A stretch of 61,047 bases of DNA, counting the filler. It is 9 parts of 9 records of this genome, joined end to end, with 100 filler letters (N's around TTAATTAATTAA, not from the genome) between each part and the next. Parts side by side here need not be neighbours in the genome. Positions count along the whole stretch, not along the records: positions 20,898 to 26,363 come from SRR31156797_56337; 8 more parts are not named here. One strand, 5' to 3'. This document shows, piece by piece, positions 6,949-55,456 of this stretch; positions within the stretch are counted from its first letter, which is position 1; every line of letters begins with the position of its first letter. The notes beneath the pieces were generated by a model, which saw only the letters and a program-made list of their open reading frames with translations, was not told the origin of the DNA and did not search any database. Position numbers and translations under genes: made by a program.

Positions 6949-7048
6949 NNNNNNNNNNNNNNNNNNNNNNNNNNNNNNNNNNNNNNNNNNNNTTAATTAA
7001 TTAANNNNNNNNNNNNNNNNNNNNNNNNNNNNNNNNNNNNNNNNNNNN
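6949..7048. other. Artificial contig linker
   Basis: N-run with central TTAATTAATTAA (stops in all six frames); GC content shifts across it. Confidence 0.98.
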
Positions 7049-14902: not shown

Positions 14903-15002
14903 NNNNNNNNNNNNNNNNNNNNNNNNNNNNNNNNNNNNNNNNNNNNTTAATTAATTAANNNNNNNNNNNNNNNNNNNNNNNNNNNNNNNNNNNNNNNNNN
15001 NN
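14903..15002. other. Artificial contig linker
   Basis: N-run with TTAATTAATTAA. Confidence 0.98.
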
Positions 15003-15226: not shown

Positions 15227-15275
15227 CAATATAAATTTGAAGCAAATAAATAAAACTATAATTGGAGGCAAAAAA

Positions 15276-16766
15276 TTGTTTGAAAGATGTAGCGGTATAT
15301 TACTTCACCCAACTTCCCTACCAGGTAAATATGGTATAGGAGAACTTGGTGATGAAGCATTTAAATTCGTAGATTTTCTGATTAATTCAGGACAAAAATT
15401 ATGGCAGATATTTCCATTAGGACCAACGGGTTACGGAGACTCACCTTATCAATGTTTCTCTGCTTTTGCGGGGAATCCATTATTAATAAGTCTGTCTGAG
15501 CTTAAAAACGCAGGACTACTTAGCTCTGATGATCTAGACCACAAAGAGGAATTCGAGTCTTCTAAAATTGATTATGGTCAAGTATTGAACTTCAAAATGA
15601 ATTTAATAAAAAAAGCTTATGAAAATTTCAAAATTAAAAACGATTTTTTATTAAATAATAAGTTTAATCGATTCTGTACAGAAAACGCAAAATGGCTTGA
15701 TGATTACGCATTATTCAGAGCAGTCAAAACACATTTTGGTGAAAAATGTTGGAGTGATTGGGATGATAAAACAATTGTTTTCAGAGAAAAAGAAGCACTA
15801 GATATATATAGTGAGATGCTCGCTGATTCAATAAATTTCAGAAAATTTATTCAGTTCACATTCTTCCAACAATGGTTAGAGTTAAAAAGTTACGCTAATA
15901 GTAACGGAATTAAAATAGTAGGAGATATTCCTATATTTATATCTTATGACAGTTCAGATGCATGGTCTAATCCGGAACTATTCCTGTTTGACGAAGAAAG
16001 AAAACCTGTAAAAGTAGCCGGTGTTCCACCTGATTATTTCAGCGCTACAGGTCAATTATGGGGAAATCCTATATATAATTGGGATGCTATGAAACAAAAT
16101 AACTTCTCATGGTGGATAGATAGAATAAAAGCTAATCTTATGATTGCTGATATAATCAGAGTAGATCATTTCAGAGGTTTTGCACAATACTGGGGTGTTG
16201 ATGCTCATGAGGAAACAGCTATCAATGGTAAATGGTATGACAGCCCGGGACAGGAGCTATTTGAATCAATCAGAGATGAACTGGGTAAACTGCCTATTAT
16301 TGCAGAGGATTTAGGTTTAATTACAGAAGATGTGCTTGAGTTAAGAGATCATTTCGACTTACCCGGAATGAAAGTACTGCAATTTGGCTTTGATGAGTCG
16401 CTTGACAGTGACCACATACCACACAAAACTATTAAAAATTCTGTAGTTTACACAGGGACTCATGACAATGATACAATCACAGGATGGTATCATTCGATTA
16501 ACGATAAAGAGAAAAATATCGTTAACGATTACTTAAGAATTAAGAGCGCAAAAAACGTATCATGGGAGTTTATACAAACGGCATTTTCATCAGTTGCAGA
16601 TATAGCTATAGTTCCACTACAAGATATACTGAGCGTTGGCTCAGAGGGTCGTATGAATACTCCCGGGCTTGCAGCAGGTAACTGGCAATGGCGATATGAG
16701 AGCGGAAATCTAAATAAAAGATTAGCATTAAAATTAAAGGAATTAAGCAGATTATATTCAAGATAA
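15276..16766 (+). CDS. malQ: 4-alpha-glucanotransferase (amylomaltase, GH77)
   Basis: GILLHPTSLPG, GVPPDYFSATGQLWGNP, RVDHFRG, AEDLG, YTGTHDN; TTG start after GGAGG. Confidence 0.96.
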   Translation: MFERCSGILLHPTSLPGKYGIGELGDEAFKFVDFLINSGQKLWQIFPLGPTGYGDSPYQCFSAFAGNPLLISLSELKNAGLLSSDDLDHKEEFESSKIDYGQVLNFKMNLIKKAYENFKIKNDFLLNNKFNRFCTENAKWLDDYALFRAVKTHFGEKCWSDWDDKTIVFREKEALDIYSEMLADSINFRKFIQFTFFQQWLELKSYANSNGIKIVGDIPIFISYDSSDAWSNPELFLFDEERKPVKVAGVPPDYFSATGQLWGNPIYNWDAMKQNNFSWWIDRIKANLMIADIIRVDHFRGFAQYWGVDAHEETAINGKWYDSPGQELFESIRDELGKLPIIAEDLGLITEDVLELRDHFDLPGMKVLQFGFDESLDSDHIPHKTIKNSVVYTGTHDNDTITGWYHSINDKEKNIVNDYLRIKSAKNVSWEFIQTAFSSVADIAIVPLQDILSVGSEGRMNTPGLAAGNWQWRYESGNLNKRLALKLKELSRLYSR

Positions 16767-16768
16767 GT

Positions 16769-16807
16769 AAAAGAGCTCGATGGTGATAAACACCATCGAG
16801 CTCTTTT
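16769..16807. terminator. Bidirectional intrinsic terminator
   Basis: 17-bp perfect IR AAAAGAGCTCGATGGTG / CACCATCGAGCTCTTTT between convergent genes. Confidence 0.88.
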
Positions 16808-16814
16808 ATCTTAT

Positions 16815-17096
16815 TTACTTCAAATTTTTAATTTTAACTTCTTTAGATAATTTAACATTTTTTGAAACTATTTCTAAATCATCTAATTTTTTTCTATTTG
16901 AGTCTTCTAAAAATCCAATTTTTAGAGAGAGAAAATTATTGCAATTTATACAAAATGTAATATCTGATAATAAATGTTTCGTTTCCATTTTTTTATCAAA
17001 ATTAACTGAAAGCGAAATAATATGAACAAAACTATCAAATCTATTTTCATGTCCACATTTTATGCATCTTCCTTTAACCACTCCGAATATTTTCAT
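16815..17096 (-). CDS. Small hypothetical protein, possible zinc ribbon
   Basis: Two CxxC pairs (CIKC, CINC); RBS GGAGAGAG. Confidence 0.6.
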   Translation of the reverse strand: MKIFGVVKGRCIKCGHENRFDSFVHIISLSVNFDKKMETKHLLSDITFCINCNNFLSLKIGFLEDSNRKKLDDLEIVSKNVKLSKEVKIKNLK

Positions 17097-17132
17097 TACT
17101 TCTCTCTCCTCAAATAGTTATAAATCATTTAA

Positions 17133-18023
17133 TTATTGATACTCTTTTTCTTCTCCAAGTTTATACCAGTATTTATTATTTTTTAATACTTTTGTACTTG
17201 CTTCTGAAAGAAGAGGGTTATCAATTCTAAATATTTTTCTATTTGGAATATTAACTAATTCAAATATTTCTTTGTTATTTGGATGAGTAAATAATAAATT
17301 ATTGAAGCTTCCATCTGCAATTGCTCTTTCCAGTCCATATTCAATTCTAGCTGCTAATTTTCTGTTATCTTTATTTACGAAAAAATAGATAGGTGCAGGG
17401 TATTGAACCATTATAGTTTTTTCTACAGTTAATTTACCATCCTCGAATCTTTCTACTTCACTCCAAGGTTCGTTAATTCCTCTAGGGAAATAATCAAATC
17501 TTTTACCACTTAACATTTTAAATAGATGCTTATACTGAGGTGCTGTTTGTACCGGGATTCCGCCTGCTTTTAGAATTTTAGTATCCGGCCAGTCATGCCC
17601 CTGTCCTGCTTTTAATTGCTGTAGATCCTCAAAAGTTTCAACTGCTGCGAATCTATCTTCATCGCCTTTTCTGATAATAAATATTCTGTGACCTAACAAC
17701 CCTTTAAACAGAGGGATTCTTATTGCTTTTAGAACCTGCTCTCTTTCAACAGATGTCATTGTCCACATTACATCGATATTTCCGCCTCTTTTTACTTCCT
17801 CAATAACTCTACTTTGTACAGTATTTCCTCCGAAACCAACTAGATCAAATTCACCATATTTATCTACAGATTTATCAAGCGCTAATTTAAGCATATCCAG
17901 ATAATACTGATTTTTTCTCGCTTTGTTTGCCGCTGATTCCATATAGTGAATTGTTTCAGCTGAGAATGATGATGCTAAAATAAATACAAATAAACCTACC
18001 AATAATAACAATCTTTTTTTCAT
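17133..18023 (-). CDS. Periplasmic solute-binding protein family 3-like protein
   Basis: Signal peptide; IRIPLFKGLLGHR, AGQGHDWPDT, RFDYFPRG, YPAPIYFFV motifs. Confidence 0.8.
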   Translation of the reverse strand: MKKRLLLLVGLFVFILASSFSAETIHYMESAANKARKNQYYLDMLKLALDKSVDKYGEFDLVGFGGNTVQSRVIEEVKRGGNIDVMWTMTSVEREQVLKAIRIPLFKGLLGHRIFIIRKGDEDRFAAVETFEDLQQLKAGQGHDWPDTKILKAGGIPVQTAPQYKHLFKMLSGKRFDYFPRGINEPWSEVERFEDGKLTVEKTIMVQYPAPIYFFVNKDNRKLAARIEYGLERAIADGSFNNLLFTHPNNKEIFELVNIPNRKIFRIDNPLLSEASTKVLKNNKYWYKLGEEKEYQ

Positions 18024-18076
18024 GCTGCTTCCTCCCATAAACTCAATTTTATAATAATAATAATTTTATAAAAATA

Positions 18077-18102
18077 TGAGCCCCTAAAATCTTAGAGGCT
18101 CA
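18077..18102 (-). terminator. Intrinsic terminator after the PTS operon
   Basis: TGAGCC..CTAA / TTAG..GGCTCA hairpin with an A/T-rich flank. Confidence 0.6.
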
Positions 18103-18192
18103 CTTTTATGTAGATCAATTATGTAAGAATTTTACCCTGTCTGTTAGTTTTTATATCTTTTGGGCAAAATTTAAAGTGGTCGCTAATTCATT

Positions 18193-18699
18193 TTAACGTT
18201 TAAGTTTTACTTTCATTAACAGATCGCCTGGTTTAACTTTTCCACTTGCATATTCTATACTCTCCACCATATCCATTGATGATATTACAACAGGTGTTGC
18301 AACTGATGGTACTCTTTCTTTGATGAAATCTAAATCGAAACTGATAAGTTCATCACCTTTTTTAACAGGACCTTCTCCTTCATGAAGTGCTGTAAATCCC
18401 TCTCCTGCTAAACTTACTGTATCCAAACCAAAGTGTATAATTAATTCAAGTCCATTTTCAGTTTCAAATGACAGTGCGTGTTTTGTTTCAAATATAACTG
18501 TTTCGTTTGCATTACACGGGGCGAATATTTTGTTTCCCTCACCATTTGGCATGATTGCCAAACCTTCTCCGAGTTCTTTTGAAGCAAATGCTTCATCTTC
18601 AACTGATTCAAGTGGCATTATCTCTCCATGCATTGGTGAATATATCTCAAAAGAGTTTGAAACTTCTTGTTTTTTAAATATCTTATCAAATAAACCCAT
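18193..18699 (-). CDS. crr: PTS glucose-family EIIA component
   Basis: DEAFASKELGEG, TKHA, IHFGLDTVSLAGEGF. Confidence 0.9.
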   Translation of the reverse strand: MGLFDKIFKKQEVSNSFEIYSPMHGEIMPLESVEDEAFASKELGEGLAIMPNGEGNKIFAPCNANETVIFETKHALSFETENGLELIIHFGLDTVSLAGEGFTALHEGEGPVKKGDELISFDLDFIKERVPSVATPVVISSMDMVESIEYASGKVKPGDLLMKVKLKR

Positions 18700-18824
18700 A
18701 GCATTATATTCCTTTCTATTATAAATTGATTTAGCTTCATAGTTGTATTATCAATATTTTCATAGCTTTAAGAGTTTTTTAGAGTCGACTCCACTATATG
18801 AAAGCTCAATTTATTTTAATTCTA

Positions 18825-20342
18825 TTAAAATCCTAAAACATCTTTAACTTTACTCGCAATTACGTTAACTTTTGGTCCGTAAATTACTTGTACTTGTGTT
18901 CCAGATAATACTTTTACTCCTGCTGCTCCTGTTGATTTTAACTTTGCCTCATTAATCTTAGCTGTATCTTTTAGGTCAAGTCTTAATCTAGTAAAACAGT
19001 TATCTACAACATCTATGTTTTCGTGTCCTCCAAGACCTTCAATAATAGTTACTATTTTAGAATCTCCTGCTGCTGTTCCTGTTGATTTAGTTTCTTCTGC
19101 TTCATCTACACCACTGTCGATTACCAAATTTTTCTTAACGAAATAAGTTTTGAATACGAAGAAGTAAATTCCGGCATAAGCAATTCCTACGATTACAGGC
19201 ATGATCCAGTTTGATCCAGGTACTAACATTCCGTAAACTCCTAAATCTATAAGTCCACCTTGTGTATTACCGATTCCTACATTTAACAGATCCATAAGCA
19301 TGAATGATAATCCAGCCATTACAGAATGGAATAAGAATAATACCGGTGCAATAAATAAGAATGTGAATTCTAAAGGTTCAGTGATTCCTGTAGTCATTGA
19401 TGCAAGTACTCCTGCAATTAATAGTGCTTCTGTAGTTCTCTTTTTATTTTCAGGTGTTACTTTATACATAGCGTATGCTGCTGCAGGAAGTCCGAATACC
19501 ATGTATGCGATTTTTCCTTGAGCTAAGAATCTAGTATATGGTTTTAATTCGTTGATATCTACTTTTCCGAAGTATTCGAAGAAGATATTCCATACTCCAA
19601 CTGTTCCGTTTAATTCTCCACCAACTGCTGTAGTTCTGAAGATACCATTTAATAAGTGATGTAATCCTGTAGGGATAAGTAATCTCTCTAAGAATCCATA
19701 TAAGAATGTCCCGAATAATCCAAGGTTAGCAATTCCAAGTCCTACCATTTCAATAGTTTTACTTACAGGTAACCATACGAAAGGAATAACTTGTCCAATA
19801 ACTGCACCAACAACGATTACTGCAATGGCAACGAATCTTTTACCACCAAAGAATGCAATAGCAACCGGAAGTTCGATATTATAATATTTATTATGAATAT
19901 AAGCTGTTAAACAACCTGCCAACATACCCGCAACTGCTCCCATTTCAGGAACTCCGCCAATACCAAGTGCTCCACCTAAAGCTGATTTAGGAAAAGTAAT
20001 ATAATCAGATGCAACCATATAACTTGCACTCCACATCATGATATAATAACAAACAAATCCTGCAAGTGCTGCAATTCCTTTTTCCTTTTTAGCCAGTCCT
20101 AACGATATCGAGATAGCAAATAGTACAGGTATCAGTCCGAATACCTTTATACTCATAGTTCTGATTAAGAATAATACATATGCAACTCCACCACCATTTA
20201 AAAACGGTAACATCTCTTTGATCTGAGGTCTTGATAATGCTGCTGTAAATCCAAATAGTATACCTACTGCTGCTAATAATGCGATTGGAAGCATTAAACT
20301 TCTACCAAAATCCTGCAGATACTTCATAACTTTGTCTTTCAT
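18825..20342 (-). CDS. PTS maltose/glucose-family EIICB component (MalX-like)
   Basis: LERLLIPTGLHH, GITEPLEFTFLF, EIIB motif NCFTRLR. Confidence 0.9.
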   Translation of the reverse strand: MKDKVMKYLQDFGRSLMLPIALLAAVGILFGFTAALSRPQIKEMLPFLNGGGVAYVLFLIRTMSIKVFGLIPVLFAISISLGLAKKEKGIAALAGFVCYYIMMWSASYMVASDYITFPKSALGGALGIGGVPEMGAVAGMLAGCLTAYIHNKYYNIELPVAIAFFGGKRFVAIAVIVVGAVIGQVIPFVWLPVSKTIEMVGLGIANLGLFGTFLYGFLERLLIPTGLHHLLNGIFRTTAVGGELNGTVGVWNIFFEYFGKVDINELKPYTRFLAQGKIAYMVFGLPAAAYAMYKVTPENKKRTTEALLIAGVLASMTTGITEPLEFTFLFIAPVLFLFHSVMAGLSFMLMDLLNVGIGNTQGGLIDLGVYGMLVPGSNWIMPVIVGIAYAGIYFFVFKTYFVKKNLVIDSGVDEAEETKSTGTAAGDSKIVTIIEGLGGHENIDVVDNCFTRLRLDLKDTAKINEAKLKSTGAAGVKVLSGTQVQVIYGPKVNVIASKVKDVLGF

Positions 20343-20559
20343 TTCCACTCTCCTTTAAATAAATTGTATTAAAAATAAAATAATTTTTCTAAAACTAACA
20401 GTGCTCCTTTGTTGGTTTTGGAAGAATTATTCTCCCAAGAACAAACAATTTATTACTAATTTCCACTCAGCTATATTACTTCAAATCCTCTACAATTCAC
20501 TATAATTATTATAATAAAATTTAAATAAATTCCATAAAGTTACTATCAAATTAGCCCTT

Positions 20560-20797: not shown

Positions 20798-20897
20798 NNN
20801 NNNNNNNNNNNNNNNNNNNNNNNNNNNNNNNNNNNNNNNNNTTAATTAATTAANNNNNNNNNNNNNNNNNNNNNNNNNNNNNNNNNNNNNNNNNNNN
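20798..20897. other. Artificial contig linker
   Basis: N-run with TTAATTAATTAA. Confidence 0.98.
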
Positions 20898-21749
20898 CTC
20901 GGGTATCGTGGAAATGTCGGCATCATGGTCTCTGAAGAAGATGACGAACCACGCGTGGTAGCACCATCAAAACCCGGGACGCGATATATCGTCCTCTTCG
21001 ATCCGCTCGATGGATCCAGCAACATCCATGTGAACGCGGAAATCGGGACGATCTTCTCCATCTTACGGGAAGATAAAACGGTTCCTGCTTCCGAAGGCCC
21101 GCTTCCCCATGTACTCCAGCCTGGCATCAAGCAGGTCGCTGCTGGATACGTGGTGTATGGCAGCAGTACAGTGCTCGCGTACACAACGGGTAAGGGGGTC
21201 CACATGTTCACCCTTGATCCGGAAATCGGGGCATATGTGCTCTGTCGCGAACATATCTCCATGCCCGAGTCCGGTCCGGTTTACAGCGTCAATGAGGGCA
21301 ACTACGAATCCTTCCCATTGGGGTATCGAAACTATCTTGACTGGGTGAAAAGCGTAGAAGCGGGTCCATATTCGTCACGGTACATCGGATCACTGGTTGC
21401 GGACTTCCATCGCACCCTGATTGCTGGCGGTGTCTTTATGTATCCGCCGACAACGAAATATCCAGGTGGAAAGCTGCGCCTCATGTACGAAGCCAATCCG
21501 CTTGCGTTTCTTGCCGAGCAGGCTGGGGGAGCCGCGACGGATGGCCGGAAGCGCATTCTCGAAAAAGAACCGCAAGCACTACACGAACGCACACCTTTGA
21601 TCATCGGTAGCTTTGAAGAGGTCGATACCGTCCTGTCGTTCCTCGGAGAAACACAGGAGTTTGATCGTGCTTACAGACGTCTTCGCGAGGAATCAGAACT
21701 TCCCTTGGCCGAGTCCATCCGCATTCACGATGCCGCGGAAGAAACCTGA
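20898..21749 (+). CDS. fbp: Class 1 fructose-1,6-bisphosphatase (5' truncated)
   Basis: SEE, FDPLDGSSN, RYIGSLVADFHRTL, GKLRLMYEANP. Confidence 0.95.
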   Translation, partial: LGYRGNVGIMVSEEDDEPRVVAPSKPGTRYIVLFDPLDGSSNIHVNAEIGTIFSILREDKTVPASEGPLPHVLQPGIKQVAAGYVVYGSSTVLAYTTGKGVHMFTLDPEIGAYVLCREHISMPESGPVYSVNEGNYESFPLGYRNYLDWVKSVEAGPYSSRYIGSLVADFHRTLIAGGVFMYPPTTKYPGGKLRLMYEANPLAFLAEQAGGAATDGRKRILEKEPQALHERTPLIIGSFEEVDTVLSFLGETQEFDRAYRRLREESELPLAESIRIHDAAEET

Positions 21750-21984: not shown

Positions 21985-24900
21985 ATGACAGCTTCCAGAC
22001 TCAGTGTGTTACTCAGCATTCTGCTGACGTGTATGTGTTATGCCGACGACAAAGCAGCTCCTGCTACCGTGGGTACCGATCAGGTTACCATTCAATTGAA
22101 ATCTGATGATGCTCAGCAACCGACAGAACCGGAGAAGTTTTCTGCGCGGTTCGCGCCGAAGGATCTGATCGCTCTGCTGGACTCCGAACCGGATGAACTT
22201 CCTCTGCCGCTTCGCCTGGAGTTTCAGCGGAAGCAGATCATTGCTGCACTGGAGCGAGTCTCAATGCAGGAAGTGGTCCAGAAAATGGAGAAGCAGCTGC
22301 ATGATCGCTTCAGCGGACGGTACCGCCCTGATTCCAGTTTAATCACGGCTCCTGTTCCTGCAGATAAACTGGTTGTGCTGGATGCGCCGGATTGTCCGGA
22401 CAAAGTCTGGAAGGGACCAAAACGGGAAGTTACGGGTTTCATCCTCTTTGATATCACTGAGAAGGAATACATCGAAGTCGCGGTCATCGTGATGCAGACG
22501 GCACGCCAGTTGATCGATTCCGGTGATCCGATCTGTGATCGTGATCATTCAGACTACTATAAGATTCTTGCCGAGAAAGAACTGGCTGACTGGCGGGATG
22601 TTCAGAAGCAGCTCATGAAGGATGAGCAGTTCAAGGCCGAAGTTCGTCAGCGTGTCGCCAAAGCTCTCAAGCTGGACGAAGAAGGCAACGGCGCAGACTG
22701 GGTTCGTGAAACCCGACGGTTCACGTACATCATCAAGGAAGGGAAGTTTATCGGAAAACTGCAACCGCTCGTCGAAGAGATTAACCACGATATGGAAGTG
22801 GCGGGCTTCAAGCCGAATCTTGGTTTGAATACTCCGGGTATCTGGTACGATCCGGACCTGCAGGATGTGGAGATCCTGTTGCCGCGACCGATTCTTGAGG
22901 GATTCCTCGATATTGCAGACCAGCTCGAAAAGCGAATGGCCGAGGAACACATCATCAGTATCGAAGCTGTTCGTCTGACAGACCGCGACATCCAGGACGG
23001 CACCATGGCTGCCCGTCTGAATCTGGAATCCCAGGGCGTTCATGATCCCCGCGCGTATCGTACGTCATCCGCGGTTCGCGAACTGGGTCTGAACTCGCTC
23101 CTGGCGGTTGCGAACCAGAATCTCCAGATCAACACGCTGGAACAGATCGCCGCGGGTGGACTTCCTTCGGGTGTGACACCGGTTCAGATTGCTCCGCCGA
23201 CGCTGCCCCCTCCGAACTTTACGCGTGAAGCGACGACAGTCGGTGGTGGTTTTTCGGTGGGGGCTGAAGACCTCTTCTTCGATGGAAGTGAACAGAGCTA
23301 CGGGTTCAGTTATATCAGTCCTGACGGCGTAGAGCATAATATTTCACTCGACGTGGCGGATAGCCTTCGTAAGTACTGGAACAGGATCGAACGAAACCTG
23401 ATCGTCCATAAGATCAAGAAAACCGAATCCAACTCGCAGTTCGAAGTGCCGATCGGGCCGAACACCAAGACGTTCGAAGGGATTGCGGCACTGATCTCCC
23501 AGCAGAACCAGCACCTGATCGTAGCAACCGGTACGGGGGCAATCTCCGAAACGGATGCAACGGCTGGTACATGGCTGATTATCCAGAATTTCTCGATTGC
23601 TCCGATTCCCGGCTCATCAACAACACTCGCAACCAAGGAACGCAAAGCGATTCGTGATAAGGTCCTCCTGACGATGATGCTGCGCGACCCCGATCGCCCG
23701 ATCGACTTCAAGCATCAGCTTCTGGATTCGGAAACACCGGAAGAACTGGAATCTCTGCTTGAAGATCATTACCTGGAAATTAAGGATGACTCGGTCTTCG
23801 GCGGCCAGAAAGCCAGGACGTATGAAGAGATTCTCACCAAACGTCAGACCGAAATGACCGAGGAAGCCCGAATCGAAAAGAAGGAAAAGAACTCGGCGAT
23901 CAGCATGTCGTTCTACTCCAGTCAGGGTACGATCCAGTTGACACCGGGCGAAACGCAGTTGGGTGATGCGAACGATTTGACTTCGTTCACGACTGAACTT
24001 CAGCCCAACGTGGTAACGCCGATTTCATCATTCATTTATCGCAGTGGTGAAGGGACGAAAGCCTCATCGTCGCTCACCGGTTTTGCACGCGGTGAAAGCT
24101 CGCAGGAAGAAAAGACGATGACCCACCTGGTGATTCGTGCCCGCTTCCCGACGATGCATCGCGAAAAGAGCGACCGGTTCGAAGGTCGTTATCTCGGATA
24201 CTTCAATCTTCCGGTACTGCAGGATCCGGTAACGGGCGAAAGCTTCCCGTTCCTGTCCAGTTCGGAACATCCGCTCGAGCGGCTTGCCAAGATGCGCATC
24301 GGCGCCATGTTCGATGCTCTCCAGGAAAACCGCATCCGTTCGACCTGGTCATTGTTTGATCCGAACATTGTCAACGGAACTGTTTCCCGGGAAACCTGGG
24401 AAGTCGCGATGACCAGGCTTCTGCTCAACCGCAAGATCATCAGTGATGCGGCACACCAGCAGAGCAATCTCAGCCCGGAAATGCGTCAGAAATTCGATGT
24501 CGAAGTCCGAACGCTTCTCGAATACGATGATATCTTCTTCGATGCTCCCAATGTTGCACTCAGTAACATGATGGAGTGGAATGATGTAACGCGGATTCTG
24601 CTGGCCCTGAATAACTCCCCGGACCGTTTCGCACTGGAACGTCTGCTGATGCTTCTGGACGACCTCGGTGAAACCATCGTCACGGATGAATACGCCCAGG
24701 AAACGCTGGCTGTTGCGATTCCTTCAGGGCTCGACGGGCACCTGCTCAGACCTCTGACGGAAAACGAACTGCGGTTGCTGCGTCGCGATGTCGCGAACCA
24801 TTACCTCCGCTTCGAGCAGGCATATGGCGATGCGTTCATGGAATCCGTCAGTATCATCTGTGGTCTCGGTACCTACCGGGCCAAGGACCGTGGACCGATG

Positions 24901-25137
24901 GAAAAAGGACCGTTCCGCGGCTGGCTGAATCTCGTGGTTTACGACAACAGTGCCCGCGCTGCTGCTGATCCGGAAGACTTTGAAATCGGCCATGACGATT
25001 TCATGCTGCTCAAGGAAGGCGGCATTCGCGGCGGATGGTTCGAACCGTCCATGATTGCCATCGAAAACCTCGACGACGAAAGTCGCAAGTTTGTCATTCG
25101 AGGCAAGGAAGTCGTGGAACGCGTATTCGGCAAGTAA
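21985..25137 (+). CDS. Large exported hypothetical protein (~1050 aa), putative highly divergent secretin
   Basis: Signal peptide after RBS GGAG; central region matches the secretin N3 and barrel pattern by eye (see findings). Confidence 0.55.
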   Translation: MTASRLSVLLSILLTCMCYADDKAAPATVGTDQVTIQLKSDDAQQPTEPEKFSARFAPKDLIALLDSEPDELPLPLRLEFQRKQIIAALERVSMQEVVQKMEKQLHDRFSGRYRPDSSLITAPVPADKLVVLDAPDCPDKVWKGPKREVTGFILFDITEKEYIEVAVIVMQTARQLIDSGDPICDRDHSDYYKILAEKELADWRDVQKQLMKDEQFKAEVRQRVAKALKLDEEGNGADWVRETRRFTYIIKEGKFIGKLQPLVEEINHDMEVAGFKPNLGLNTPGIWYDPDLQDVEILLPRPILEGFLDIADQLEKRMAEEHIISIEAVRLTDRDIQDGTMAARLNLESQGVHDPRAYRTSSAVRELGLNSLLAVANQNLQINTLEQIAAGGLPSGVTPVQIAPPTLPPPNFTREATTVGGGFSVGAEDLFFDGSEQSYGFSYISPDGVEHNISLDVADSLRKYWNRIERNLIVHKIKKTESNSQFEVPIGPNTKTFEGIAALISQQNQHLIVATGTGAISETDATAGTWLIIQNFSIAPIPGSSTTLATKERKAIRDKVLLTMMLRDPDRPIDFKHQLLDSETPEELESLLEDHYLEIKDDSVFGGQKARTYEEILTKRQTEMTEEARIEKKEKNSAISMSFYSSQGTIQLTPGETQLGDANDLTSFTTELQPNVVTPISSFIYRSGEGTKASSSLTGFARGESSQEEKTMTHLVIRARFPTMHREKSDRFEGRYLGYFNLPVLQDPVTGESFPFLSSSEHPLERLAKMRIGAMFDALQENRIRSTWSLFDPNIVNGTVSRETWEVAMTRLLLNRKIISDAAHQQSNLSPEMRQKFDVEVRTLLEYDDIFFDAPNVALSNMMEWNDVTRILLALNNSPDRFALERLLMLLDDLGETIVTDEYAQETLAVAIPSGLDGHLLRPLTENELRLLRRDVANHYLRFEQAYGDAFMESVSIICGLGTYRAKDRGPMEKGPFRGWLNLVVYDNSARAAADPEDFEIGHDDFMLLKEGGIRGGWFEPSMIAIENLDDESRKFVIRGKEVVERVFGK

Positions 25138-26363: not shown

Positions 26364-26463
26364 NNNNNNNNNNNNNNNNNNNNNNNNNNNNNNNNNNNNN
26401 NNNNNNNTTAATTAATTAANNNNNNNNNNNNNNNNNNNNNNNNNNNNNNNNNNNNNNNNNNNN
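26364..26463. other. Artificial contig linker
   Basis: N-run with TTAATTAATTAA. Confidence 0.98.
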
Positions 26464-34034: not shown

Positions 34035-34134
34035 NNNNNNNNNNNNNNNNNNNNNNNNNNNNNNNNNNNNNNNNNNNNTTAATTAATTAANNNNNNNNNN
34101 NNNNNNNNNNNNNNNNNNNNNNNNNNNNNNNNNN
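34035..34134. other. Artificial contig linker
   Basis: N-run with TTAATTAATTAA. Confidence 0.98.
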
Positions 34135-39623: not shown

Positions 39624-39723
39624 NNNNNNNNNNNNNNNNNNNNNNNNNNNNNNNNNNNNNNNNNNNNTTAATTAATTAANNNNNNNNNNNNNNNNNNNNN
39701 NNNNNNNNNNNNNNNNNNNNNNN
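39624..39723. other. Artificial contig linker
   Basis: N-run with TTAATTAATTAA. Confidence 0.98.
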
Positions 39724-49217: not shown

Positions 49218-49317
49218 NNNNNNNNNNNNNNNNNNNNNNNNNNNNNNNNNNNNNNNNNNNNTTAATTAATTAANNNNNNNNNNNNNNNNNNNNNNNNNNN
49301 NNNNNNNNNNNNNNNNN
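49218..49317. other. Artificial contig linker
   Basis: N-run with TTAATTAATTAA. Confidence 0.98.
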
Positions 49318-55356: not shown

Positions 55357-55456
55357 NNNNNNNNNNNNNNNNNNNNNNNNNNNNNNNNNNNNNNNNNNNN
55401 TTAATTAATTAANNNNNNNNNNNNNNNNNNNNNNNNNNNNNNNNNNNNNNNNNNNN
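55357..55456. other. Artificial contig linker
   Basis: N-run with TTAATTAATTAA. Confidence 0.98.

Follow-up and report, generated by a model that had tools for sequence, protein, structure and literature searches.

Type II and type III secretion systems (T2SSs and T3SSs), type IV and Tad pili, competence and the export of filamentous phage have one kind of outer-membrane gate in common, the secretins, which are normally recognised through one Pfam signature. Could a protein without that signature belong among them? The question is raised by a gene of 1,050 codons in a stretch of DNA of 61,047 nucleotides (the window), whose product a sequence-only reading had taken for an orphan, highly divergent and expanded secretin. 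The source organism of the protein is an uncultured Phycisphaerae bacterium. From its predicted structure we consider it likely, at a probability of about 0.7, that the gene encodes a subunit of a secretin-type channel in the outer membrane, enlarged by lineage-specific parts, and, taken jointly with this, that its family is compact, had gone unannotated and is limited to one order of Phycisphaerae.

21985..25137, + strand: whole gene, putative exported secretin-like protein of 1,050 aa, no internal stop; stop codon at 25135-25137

The open reading frame (ORF) of about 1,050 aa that had been read here is real and open throughout. An alternative TTG start lies 22 codons upstream in a frame that is also open; we kept the start at 21985 because homologues begin at the hydrophobic N-terminus.

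The predicted structure matches secretins of every class

A full-length AlphaFold2 model of the monomer, built from 89 sequences of the family described below, reached a mean predicted local distance difference test score (pLDDT) of 80.8 and a predicted template-modelling score (pTM) of 0.64, with high confidence in its N-terminal, N3-like, insert-2 and C-terminal parts. When the model was compared with the Protein Data Bank (PDB) using Foldseek, all 39 matches at E ≤ 0.001 were secretin chains. The best was GspD (5zdh, 3.8e-11), followed by PilQ, InvG, BfpB, XcpQ and pIV; the classes matched at this threshold were those of T2SSs, type IVa and IVb pili, T3SSs and filamentous phage, with the Tad secretin RcpA next at 1.3e-3 and the first non-secretin match at E 0.077. 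A second look with VIA-align aligned 28 secretin entries to model residues ~238-740 at Z 8.7-10.6. Finally, 48,161 representative chains were scanned independently of Foldseek: the 12 chains at Z ≥ 8 were all secretins, drawn from every class, and no non-secretin fold rose above Z 6.6.

The matched span comprises two predicted domains:

22690..22947, + strand: predicted N3/N1-type ring-building (KH-like) domain, residues 236-321, beta-alpha-beta-beta-alpha in the AlphaFold2 model
22948..24150, + strand: predicted secretin-like beta-domain, residues 322-722, long beta-hairpins broken by two inserts; Foldseek E to 3.8e-11

The first of these is modelled as three strands (residues 239-244, 285-289 and 294-300) and two helices (259-273 and 301-321), and continues without a break into the first long strand of the putative barrel. 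It superimposes on the N-domains of GspD, PilQ, EscC, InvG and XcpQ at Z 5.6-7.2 and with 2.4-2.8 Å root-mean-square deviation (rmsd): for the GspD N-domain 3ezj, Z was 7.2 and rmsd 2.6-2.8 Å over 67-69 aa, and for 3oss, PilQ 4av2 and EscC 3gr5, Z was 7.0, 6.7 and 6.0-6.1, respectively. KH domains scored Z 5.2-5.9, as expected for this fold. In pIV, too, N3 is built of three strands and two helices, with the barrel following directly (PMC8563730). The model thus predicts an N3/N1-type ring-building domain directly ahead of the beta-domain.

The beta-domain, for its part, aligned by VIA-align with GspD (5w68, Z 10.2, 277 of 350 residues), PilQ (6ve4, Z 10.0), pIV (7ofh, Z 9.8) and RcpA (8odn, Z 9.2, 205-206 of 244 residues at rmsd 5.7-5.9 Å), and the small secretins were covered almost fully (223 of the 231 resolved residues of pIV, 271 of 304 in PilQ). 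On the AlphaFold2 model, then, the protein is predicted to adopt a secretin-type beta-domain fold. The structural span coincides with the region at 22699-24150 (residues 239-722) in which the sequence-only reading had marked secretin elements, and all eight of the secretin-like peptide strings that it quoted lie within residues 241-721 (at 241-250, 255-263, 285-316, 322-331, 524-533, 638-643, 668-684 and 705-721; window 22705-24147). Neither of the outcomes that it had named as fatal to its proposal, a lack of the N3 domain or secretin beta-domain or the assignment of another fold, was seen in the predicted monomer.

A compact family in Phycisphaerae

The protein is no orphan in the sense of lacking relatives: a word-indexed search brought up 94 homologues that are 44-59% identical to it, most of them 1,040-1,100 aa long. 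Those with a taxon label all come from metagenome-assembled genomes (MAGs) of Phycisphaerae/Planctomycetota, and every named one is labelled 'hypothetical protein'. An identical sequence is absent from the searched collection, where the closest full-length relative is 55% identical. The family alignment is conserved from end to end, with a mean column identity of 52%. When 1.84 billion cluster representatives were searched exhaustively with a HMMER profile, only 40 proteins came back, namely the family itself, fragments of it, one unrelated repeat protein (E 2.5e-4) and a divergent full-length member, P0104, of 1,040 aa and 22-27% identity to the others. Among the titles and abstract openings of the literature on secretins in Planctomycetes/Phycisphaerae and on divergent or novel secretins, we found no description of this family.

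Among species-representative genomes the gene occurs in 41 loci, all from Phycisphaerae/Planctomycetota MAGs. It was present in 1 of 301 genomes sampled across the phylum (that one being the genome at the centre of the sample), in 30 of 151 genomes from its order and in 11 of 49 of the family to which genome G001 belongs; the sampled genomes are MAGs, and absences are soft. At least four genomes hold two full-length copies. The two-copy cases, in which the copies lie on different contigs, are L005 with L020 (one MAG), L027 with L037 (one MAG), G360 and G364.

Additions to the secretin core

About 560 residues of unassigned fold lie outside the secretin core.

21985..22047, + strand: signal-peptide-like N-terminus, residues 1-21, hydrophobic core; cleavage site inferred from sequence
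22120..22689, + strand: N-terminal putative periplasmic alpha/beta domain, residues 46-235, two long helices at its end (159-179, 191-227)
23053..23226, + strand: insert 1, residues 357-414, helix 360-389 and a Pro-rich loop; pLDDT 48-61
23605..23892, + strand: insert 2, residues 541-636, helices 550-567, 573-580, 585-599 and 613-635; pLDDT blocks mostly 85-96
24217..25134, + strand: C-terminal domain, residues 745-1050 (306 aa), mainly helical; folded alone

The N-terminus has the features of a Sec-type signal peptide: firstly, an arginine at position 5; secondly, a core of hydrophobic residues at about 6-19 (window 22000-22041); thirdly, an A-x-A-like end. This hydrophobic stretch is conserved, in that 88 of the 89 aligned members reach a best 12-residue Kyte-Doolittle mean of at least 1.5 within their first ~70 residues (65 of 89 exceed 2.0 in the best N-terminal 12 residues). 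Judged by sequence, an N-terminal export signal is present, in agreement with the earlier call of a signal peptide. It is followed by a linker (residues 18-45, pLDDT below 50) and a confidently predicted domain (pLDDT blocks of 85-97 over residues 51-230 and 73 over 231-240). Some VIA-align alignments extend from residue ~50 onto the N1/N2 domains of secretins, only at an overall rmsd of 16-29 Å, and no N0 domain was recognised.

Within the beta-domain, insert 1 follows the first long hairpin and, going by order and length only, would occupy the position of the extracellular beta-lip; in pIV the order is beta-lip (199-234), Gate 1 (267-297) and Gate 2 (321-335) (PMC8563730). The amphipathicity of the model's helices and strands, in which a membrane loop or lipid-facing belt was sought, was uninformative (hydrophobic moment, muH, 0.19 for helix 360-389). 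Insert 2, the helical insertion of some 90 aa noted earlier within the putative barrel, is modelled as four helices between strands 520-540 and 637-652, preceded by about 100 residues of strands and followed by the last four. It gave weak matches to death-domain/CARD bundles (Z 4.9-5.2), and length-matching would place it near the site of the loop motif that is missing here (see below) in canonical secretins.

The long C-terminal extension of the earlier reading likewise appears in the model as a separate region past the last long strand (701-720), where a helix (724-736) leads to the 306-aa domain. Folded alone from 34 sequences, this domain was predicted with a pLDDT of 86.3 and a pTM of 0.86, and it matched nothing: Foldseek gave no PDB match at E ≤ 0.001 (best E 0.73), the VIA-align scan of 48,161 chains none at Z ≥ 5 (best 4.9, a Bcl-2-like bundle), Pfam and PDB sequences no match, and a language-model feature search of the ESM Atlas with the C-terminal part no usable match. 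In T2SS and T3SS secretins, an S-domain at the C-terminus lies against the barrel's outer wall and is where pilotins bind (PMC8563730). By analogy, the 306-aa domain holds the position of the S-domain in the chain.

Evidence that weighs against a secretin

A number of results count against the secretin reading. Several come from sequence searches. The window protein matched none of the Pfam families at E ≤ 10; none of 46 further members matched PF00263 (Secretin) or PF03958 (Secretin_N) at the same threshold; NCBIfam and, by phmmer, PDB sequences gave no match at E ≤ 10; and the family profile, run against PDB sequences with hmmsearch, reached at best E 1.6, on a chance stretch of 31 residues in a peroxiredoxin-type protein. 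Aligned by hhalign with nine canonical PF00263 secretins from three related Phycisphaerae genomes, the family alignment scored a probability of 0.6%, and the exhaustive search of 1.84e9 representatives had no secretin among its 40 proteins. A search for P.[LIVM]G.[LIVMF]F, the loop motif (a P-x-L-G-x-L-F type pattern, checked against the local canonical secretins), matched 0 of 89 family members as opposed to 6 of 9 canonical Phycisphaerae secretins; the absence of this diagnostic motif, written IP.LG.LF in the sequence-only reading, is therefore borne out.

Two further points concern the model and two the surroundings of the gene. Confidence in the beta-domain is moderate (10-residue pLDDT blocks of 46-89), and TM-scores are low (0.21-0.42 on the target) at rmsd 5.7-11 Å, so that details of the barrel are unreliable; we attribute the high rmsd and low TM-scores to the inserts and to the modelling, as a monomer, of a protein that folds in a ring. 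Among the 125 neighbours examined with Pfam (two genes to either side in 40 loci, leaving out L041, where the gene is split, and ORFs below 90 or above 900 aa), no secretion, pilus, Tad or phage family is found in the best 25 of 88 families. Moreover, in three large Phycisphaerae genomes that carry the gene (G001, G002 and G003, behind loci L015, L021 and L025), the nearest T2SSE ATPase lies 531, 392 and 35 kb away, respectively.

PF00263 scans of G001-G003 matched 5-7 other places in each of these genomes and not this gene. On the side of a secretin, the whole protein reached Planctomycetota secretin clusters in the ESM Atlas at 0.82, a sub-threshold score that counts as a lead only. A prediction of a two-copy complex of residues 236-735 scored 0.00, the alignment having gone unused and the chain's own fold being uncertain; it speaks neither for nor against the secretin reading.

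Do these points make the secretin likeness an artefact of prediction, or a case of convergence in some other beta-rich exported protein, such as a structural protein of the periplasm or surface, or another kind of pore former? The want of sequence support of any kind, the moderate pLDDT and high rmsd of the beta-domain, and weak matches to the gasdermin and pleurotolysin pores (Z 4.0-5.0) speak for this possibility. Against it, two aligners agree, the chains at Z ≥ 8 span every secretin class, no other fold exceeds Z 6.6, and a separate, well-predicted N3-type domain sits exactly at the secretin position. We consider an artefact quite unlikely. The comparison proposed at the outset, with PF00263, PF03958 and solved structures, came out in two halves: structures returned secretins, sequence profiles nothing. 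As both the Pfam signature and the loop motif were looked for and are lacking, we do not file the protein under the Pfam secretin family; on the strength of the model, it is filed as a sequence-undetectable variant of the secretin kind.

Gene neighbourhoods and possible partners

Does the putative secretin serve a machine encoded beside it? Clustering of all flanking ORFs across the 41 loci yielded no neighbour family in more than 4-5 loci, and the commonest of the 88 Pfam families, ABC_tran (ABC transporter), was seen in 4 of the 125 neighbouring proteins. No genetic linkage to a T2SS, type IV pilus, Tad, T3SS or filamentous-phage module was found. The earlier statement that no T2SS, type IV pilus, Tad or phage gene adjoins this one therefore holds up in that none recurs across 40 related loci; the window by itself offers 5.5 kb in its support.

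Secretion and pilus ATPases are nevertheless plentiful in the three large genomes. Each has 15-17 T2SSE ATPase matches in 11-14 loci and 4-7 matches over the PF00263 cut-off, and 7 of 11, 11 of 14 and 6 of 11 T2SSE loci have no PF00263 secretin within 30 kb (3-5 loci have one). Since most T2SSE loci are without a secretin nearby, unlinked partners are plausible. Within the secretin reading, then, the protein may be the unlinked outer-membrane secretin of a type IV filament machine (T2SS-, type IV pilus- or Tad-like) encoded elsewhere. The many ATPase loci without a secretin favour this, as do the predicted periplasmic N-domains, which are of the type that docks to inner-membrane platforms in known systems; however, the gene is patchy even within its order and family, and no N0 domain is recognised. 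We entertain this version tentatively, as possible at less than even odds.

Alternatively, the secretin-type pore might be self-sufficient and work without a filament machine, for example as an exopolymer nozzle or a gated conduit for large molecules, with the C-terminal domain and inserts supplying partner functions. This would fit the lack of a conserved neighbour in 40 loci and the ~560 residues beyond the secretin core, and there is a precedent for non-protein cargo: secretins from the PilQ/GspD family are reported to act as slime nozzles, although there they belong to T2SSs (PMC12475490). Missing linkage is, however, weak evidence where genes are dispersed, and neither an energy source nor a cargo can be named. 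We regard a self-sufficient pore as doubtful. Unlikely, too, in our judgement, is that the family represents a self-contained class of secretin-type pore whose new-fold C-terminal domain, larger lip and helical bundle within the barrel would stand in for pilotins and machine partners. Such a pore would serve, for instance, polymer export or the passage of large molecules across the Phycisphaerae envelope without filament, T3SS or phage machinery, and would have diverged from other secretins beyond the reach of any sequence method. A stand-alone channel, the proposal of the sequence-only reading, is compatible with the gene neighbourhoods, while the genomes hold many unlinked pilus and secretion ATPase loci.

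The patchy occurrence, together with the two full-length copies in some genomes, could also be explained if the gene were the secretin of an integrated filamentous phage or other mobile element, and one viral predicted structure does match (E 8.8e-9). Yet the genes around it are assorted housekeeping genes among which no phage or mobile family recurs, the GC content of the gene equals that of its contig, and phage secretins are ~400 aa long whereas this family is steady at 1,040-1,100 aa. With a single viral structure match and neighbours that are not phage-like, we set a phage origin aside as highly improbable.

One small protein does recur beside the gene. It is a lipoprotein of ~177 aa with a lipobox cysteine, four Cys-rich repeats (C..DC...L.CQ....TCQ) and no Pfam family:

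L011:8199-8729, L007:3245-3772, L018:6495-7139, L028:10419-10955, L017:3089-3721, L040:13184-13720, L004:7048-7383: Cys-rich lipoprotein

It is found in 7 of the 41 loci, directly downstream of the secretin-like gene in six and nearby in the seventh. As an obligate pilotin partner it was rejected, for none of the 49 genomes of G001's family holds it and 11 of them carry the secretin-like gene; it is at most a lineage-specific companion.

Comparison with known secretins

GspD, XcpQ and PulD (5w68, 5wq9, 5wln, 6hcg) are the best structural matches, at Z 9.5-10.6 over 276-341 residues of N3 and beta-domain. Like these, the protein is predicted to be exported and to carry periplasmic N-domains ahead of a barrel. 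Unlike them, the family shows no PF00263 or PF03958 signal, loop motif, recognised N0 domain or nearby gsp genes, and it has two predicted inserts (~58 and ~96 aa) and a 306-aa C-terminal domain in place of a short S-domain. The aligned part of pIV comprises its N3 and secretin domains, with elements in the same order (7ofh; PMC8563730); pIV is, however, ~400 aa long, with a compact lip and no S-domain, whereas the Phycisphaerae protein exceeds it in length 2.5 times and has no phage context. Alignments of the beta-domain with RcpA (8odn) and PilQ/BfpB (6ve4, 6w6m, 9u5s) score Z 8.8-10.0, RcpA giving the smallest rmsd; these secretins are encoded with pilus genes and seen by sequence profiles, and neither is true of this family.

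The family shares its organisms, and presumably its membrane, with PF00263 secretins, both canonical and giant, that are encoded in the same Phycisphaerae genomes. Profile-profile comparison nonetheless finds no likeness between the family and the canonical ones, which mostly keep the loop motif and several of which lie within 30 kb of a T2SSE ATPase. The giants are canonical PF00263 domains in very long open frames:

L043, G001:C1:2612538-2616038: PF00263 domain in an open frame of 4,913 aa
L044, G003:C1:1125482-1128982: PF00263 domain in an open frame of 4,933 aa
L042, G002:C1:3396241-3399744: PF00263 domain in an open frame of 1,489 aa

By analogy with solved secretins, 12-15 copies of the protein would form an outer-membrane beta-barrel, double-walled and gated, with the N-domains forming stacked periplasmic rings and insert 1 at the extracellular lip. 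The C-terminal domain would decorate the exterior of the barrel just under the membrane, at the S-domain site, where it may take over targeting, anchoring or the docking of partners. Such a channel would pass a folded macromolecule, a fibre or a polymer across the outer membrane, and its inner-membrane partner, if there is one, would be encoded elsewhere in the genome.

Setting of the gene in the window

The window consists of nine short contigs joined by N44-TTAATTAATTAA-N44 linkers:

6949-7048, 14903-15002, 20798-20897, 26364-26463, 34035-34134, 39624-39723, 49218-49317, 55357-55456: linkers

Its pieces have GC contents between 33% and 63%; the window is a chain of mixed-bin or metagenome origin, and adjacency across linkers is meaningless. 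The gene's own contig (20898-26363; 5,466 bp, GC ~53%) holds three genes, the other two being:

20898..21749, + strand: fructose-1,6-bisphosphatase, upstream neighbour; PF00316 from profile position 85 of 191, plus PF18913; 5' end cut by the contig start
25187..26363, + strand: Memo/AmrB-type protein, downstream neighbour; PF01875, E 7.8e-31; 3' end cut by the contig end

These Pfam matches agree with the fbp and amrB genes that had been read on either side. Because the contig is short and both neighbours are cut by its ends, the statement that no secretion genes adjoin rests, within the window, on 5.5 kb. Another contig of the window carries genes for 4-alpha-glucanotransferase and for the phosphotransferase system (PTS) components EIIA and EIICB (15237-20348, GC 33%), and is typical of an organism quite different from that of the Phycisphaerae contig.

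Implications

Together, these data suggest, at the level of a predicted monomer, that censuses based on sequence profiles may miss secretin-like channels. To the secretin core the family adds some 560 residues, including a confidently predicted C-terminal domain at what would be the pilotin-binding position, and it does so with no linked machine genes. If the predicted fold is true, the family would offer a natural test of which features secretins need in order to assemble and to gate, a candidate for the outer-membrane partner of the pilus and secretion loci of Phycisphaerae that have no secretin, and a new domain to characterise.

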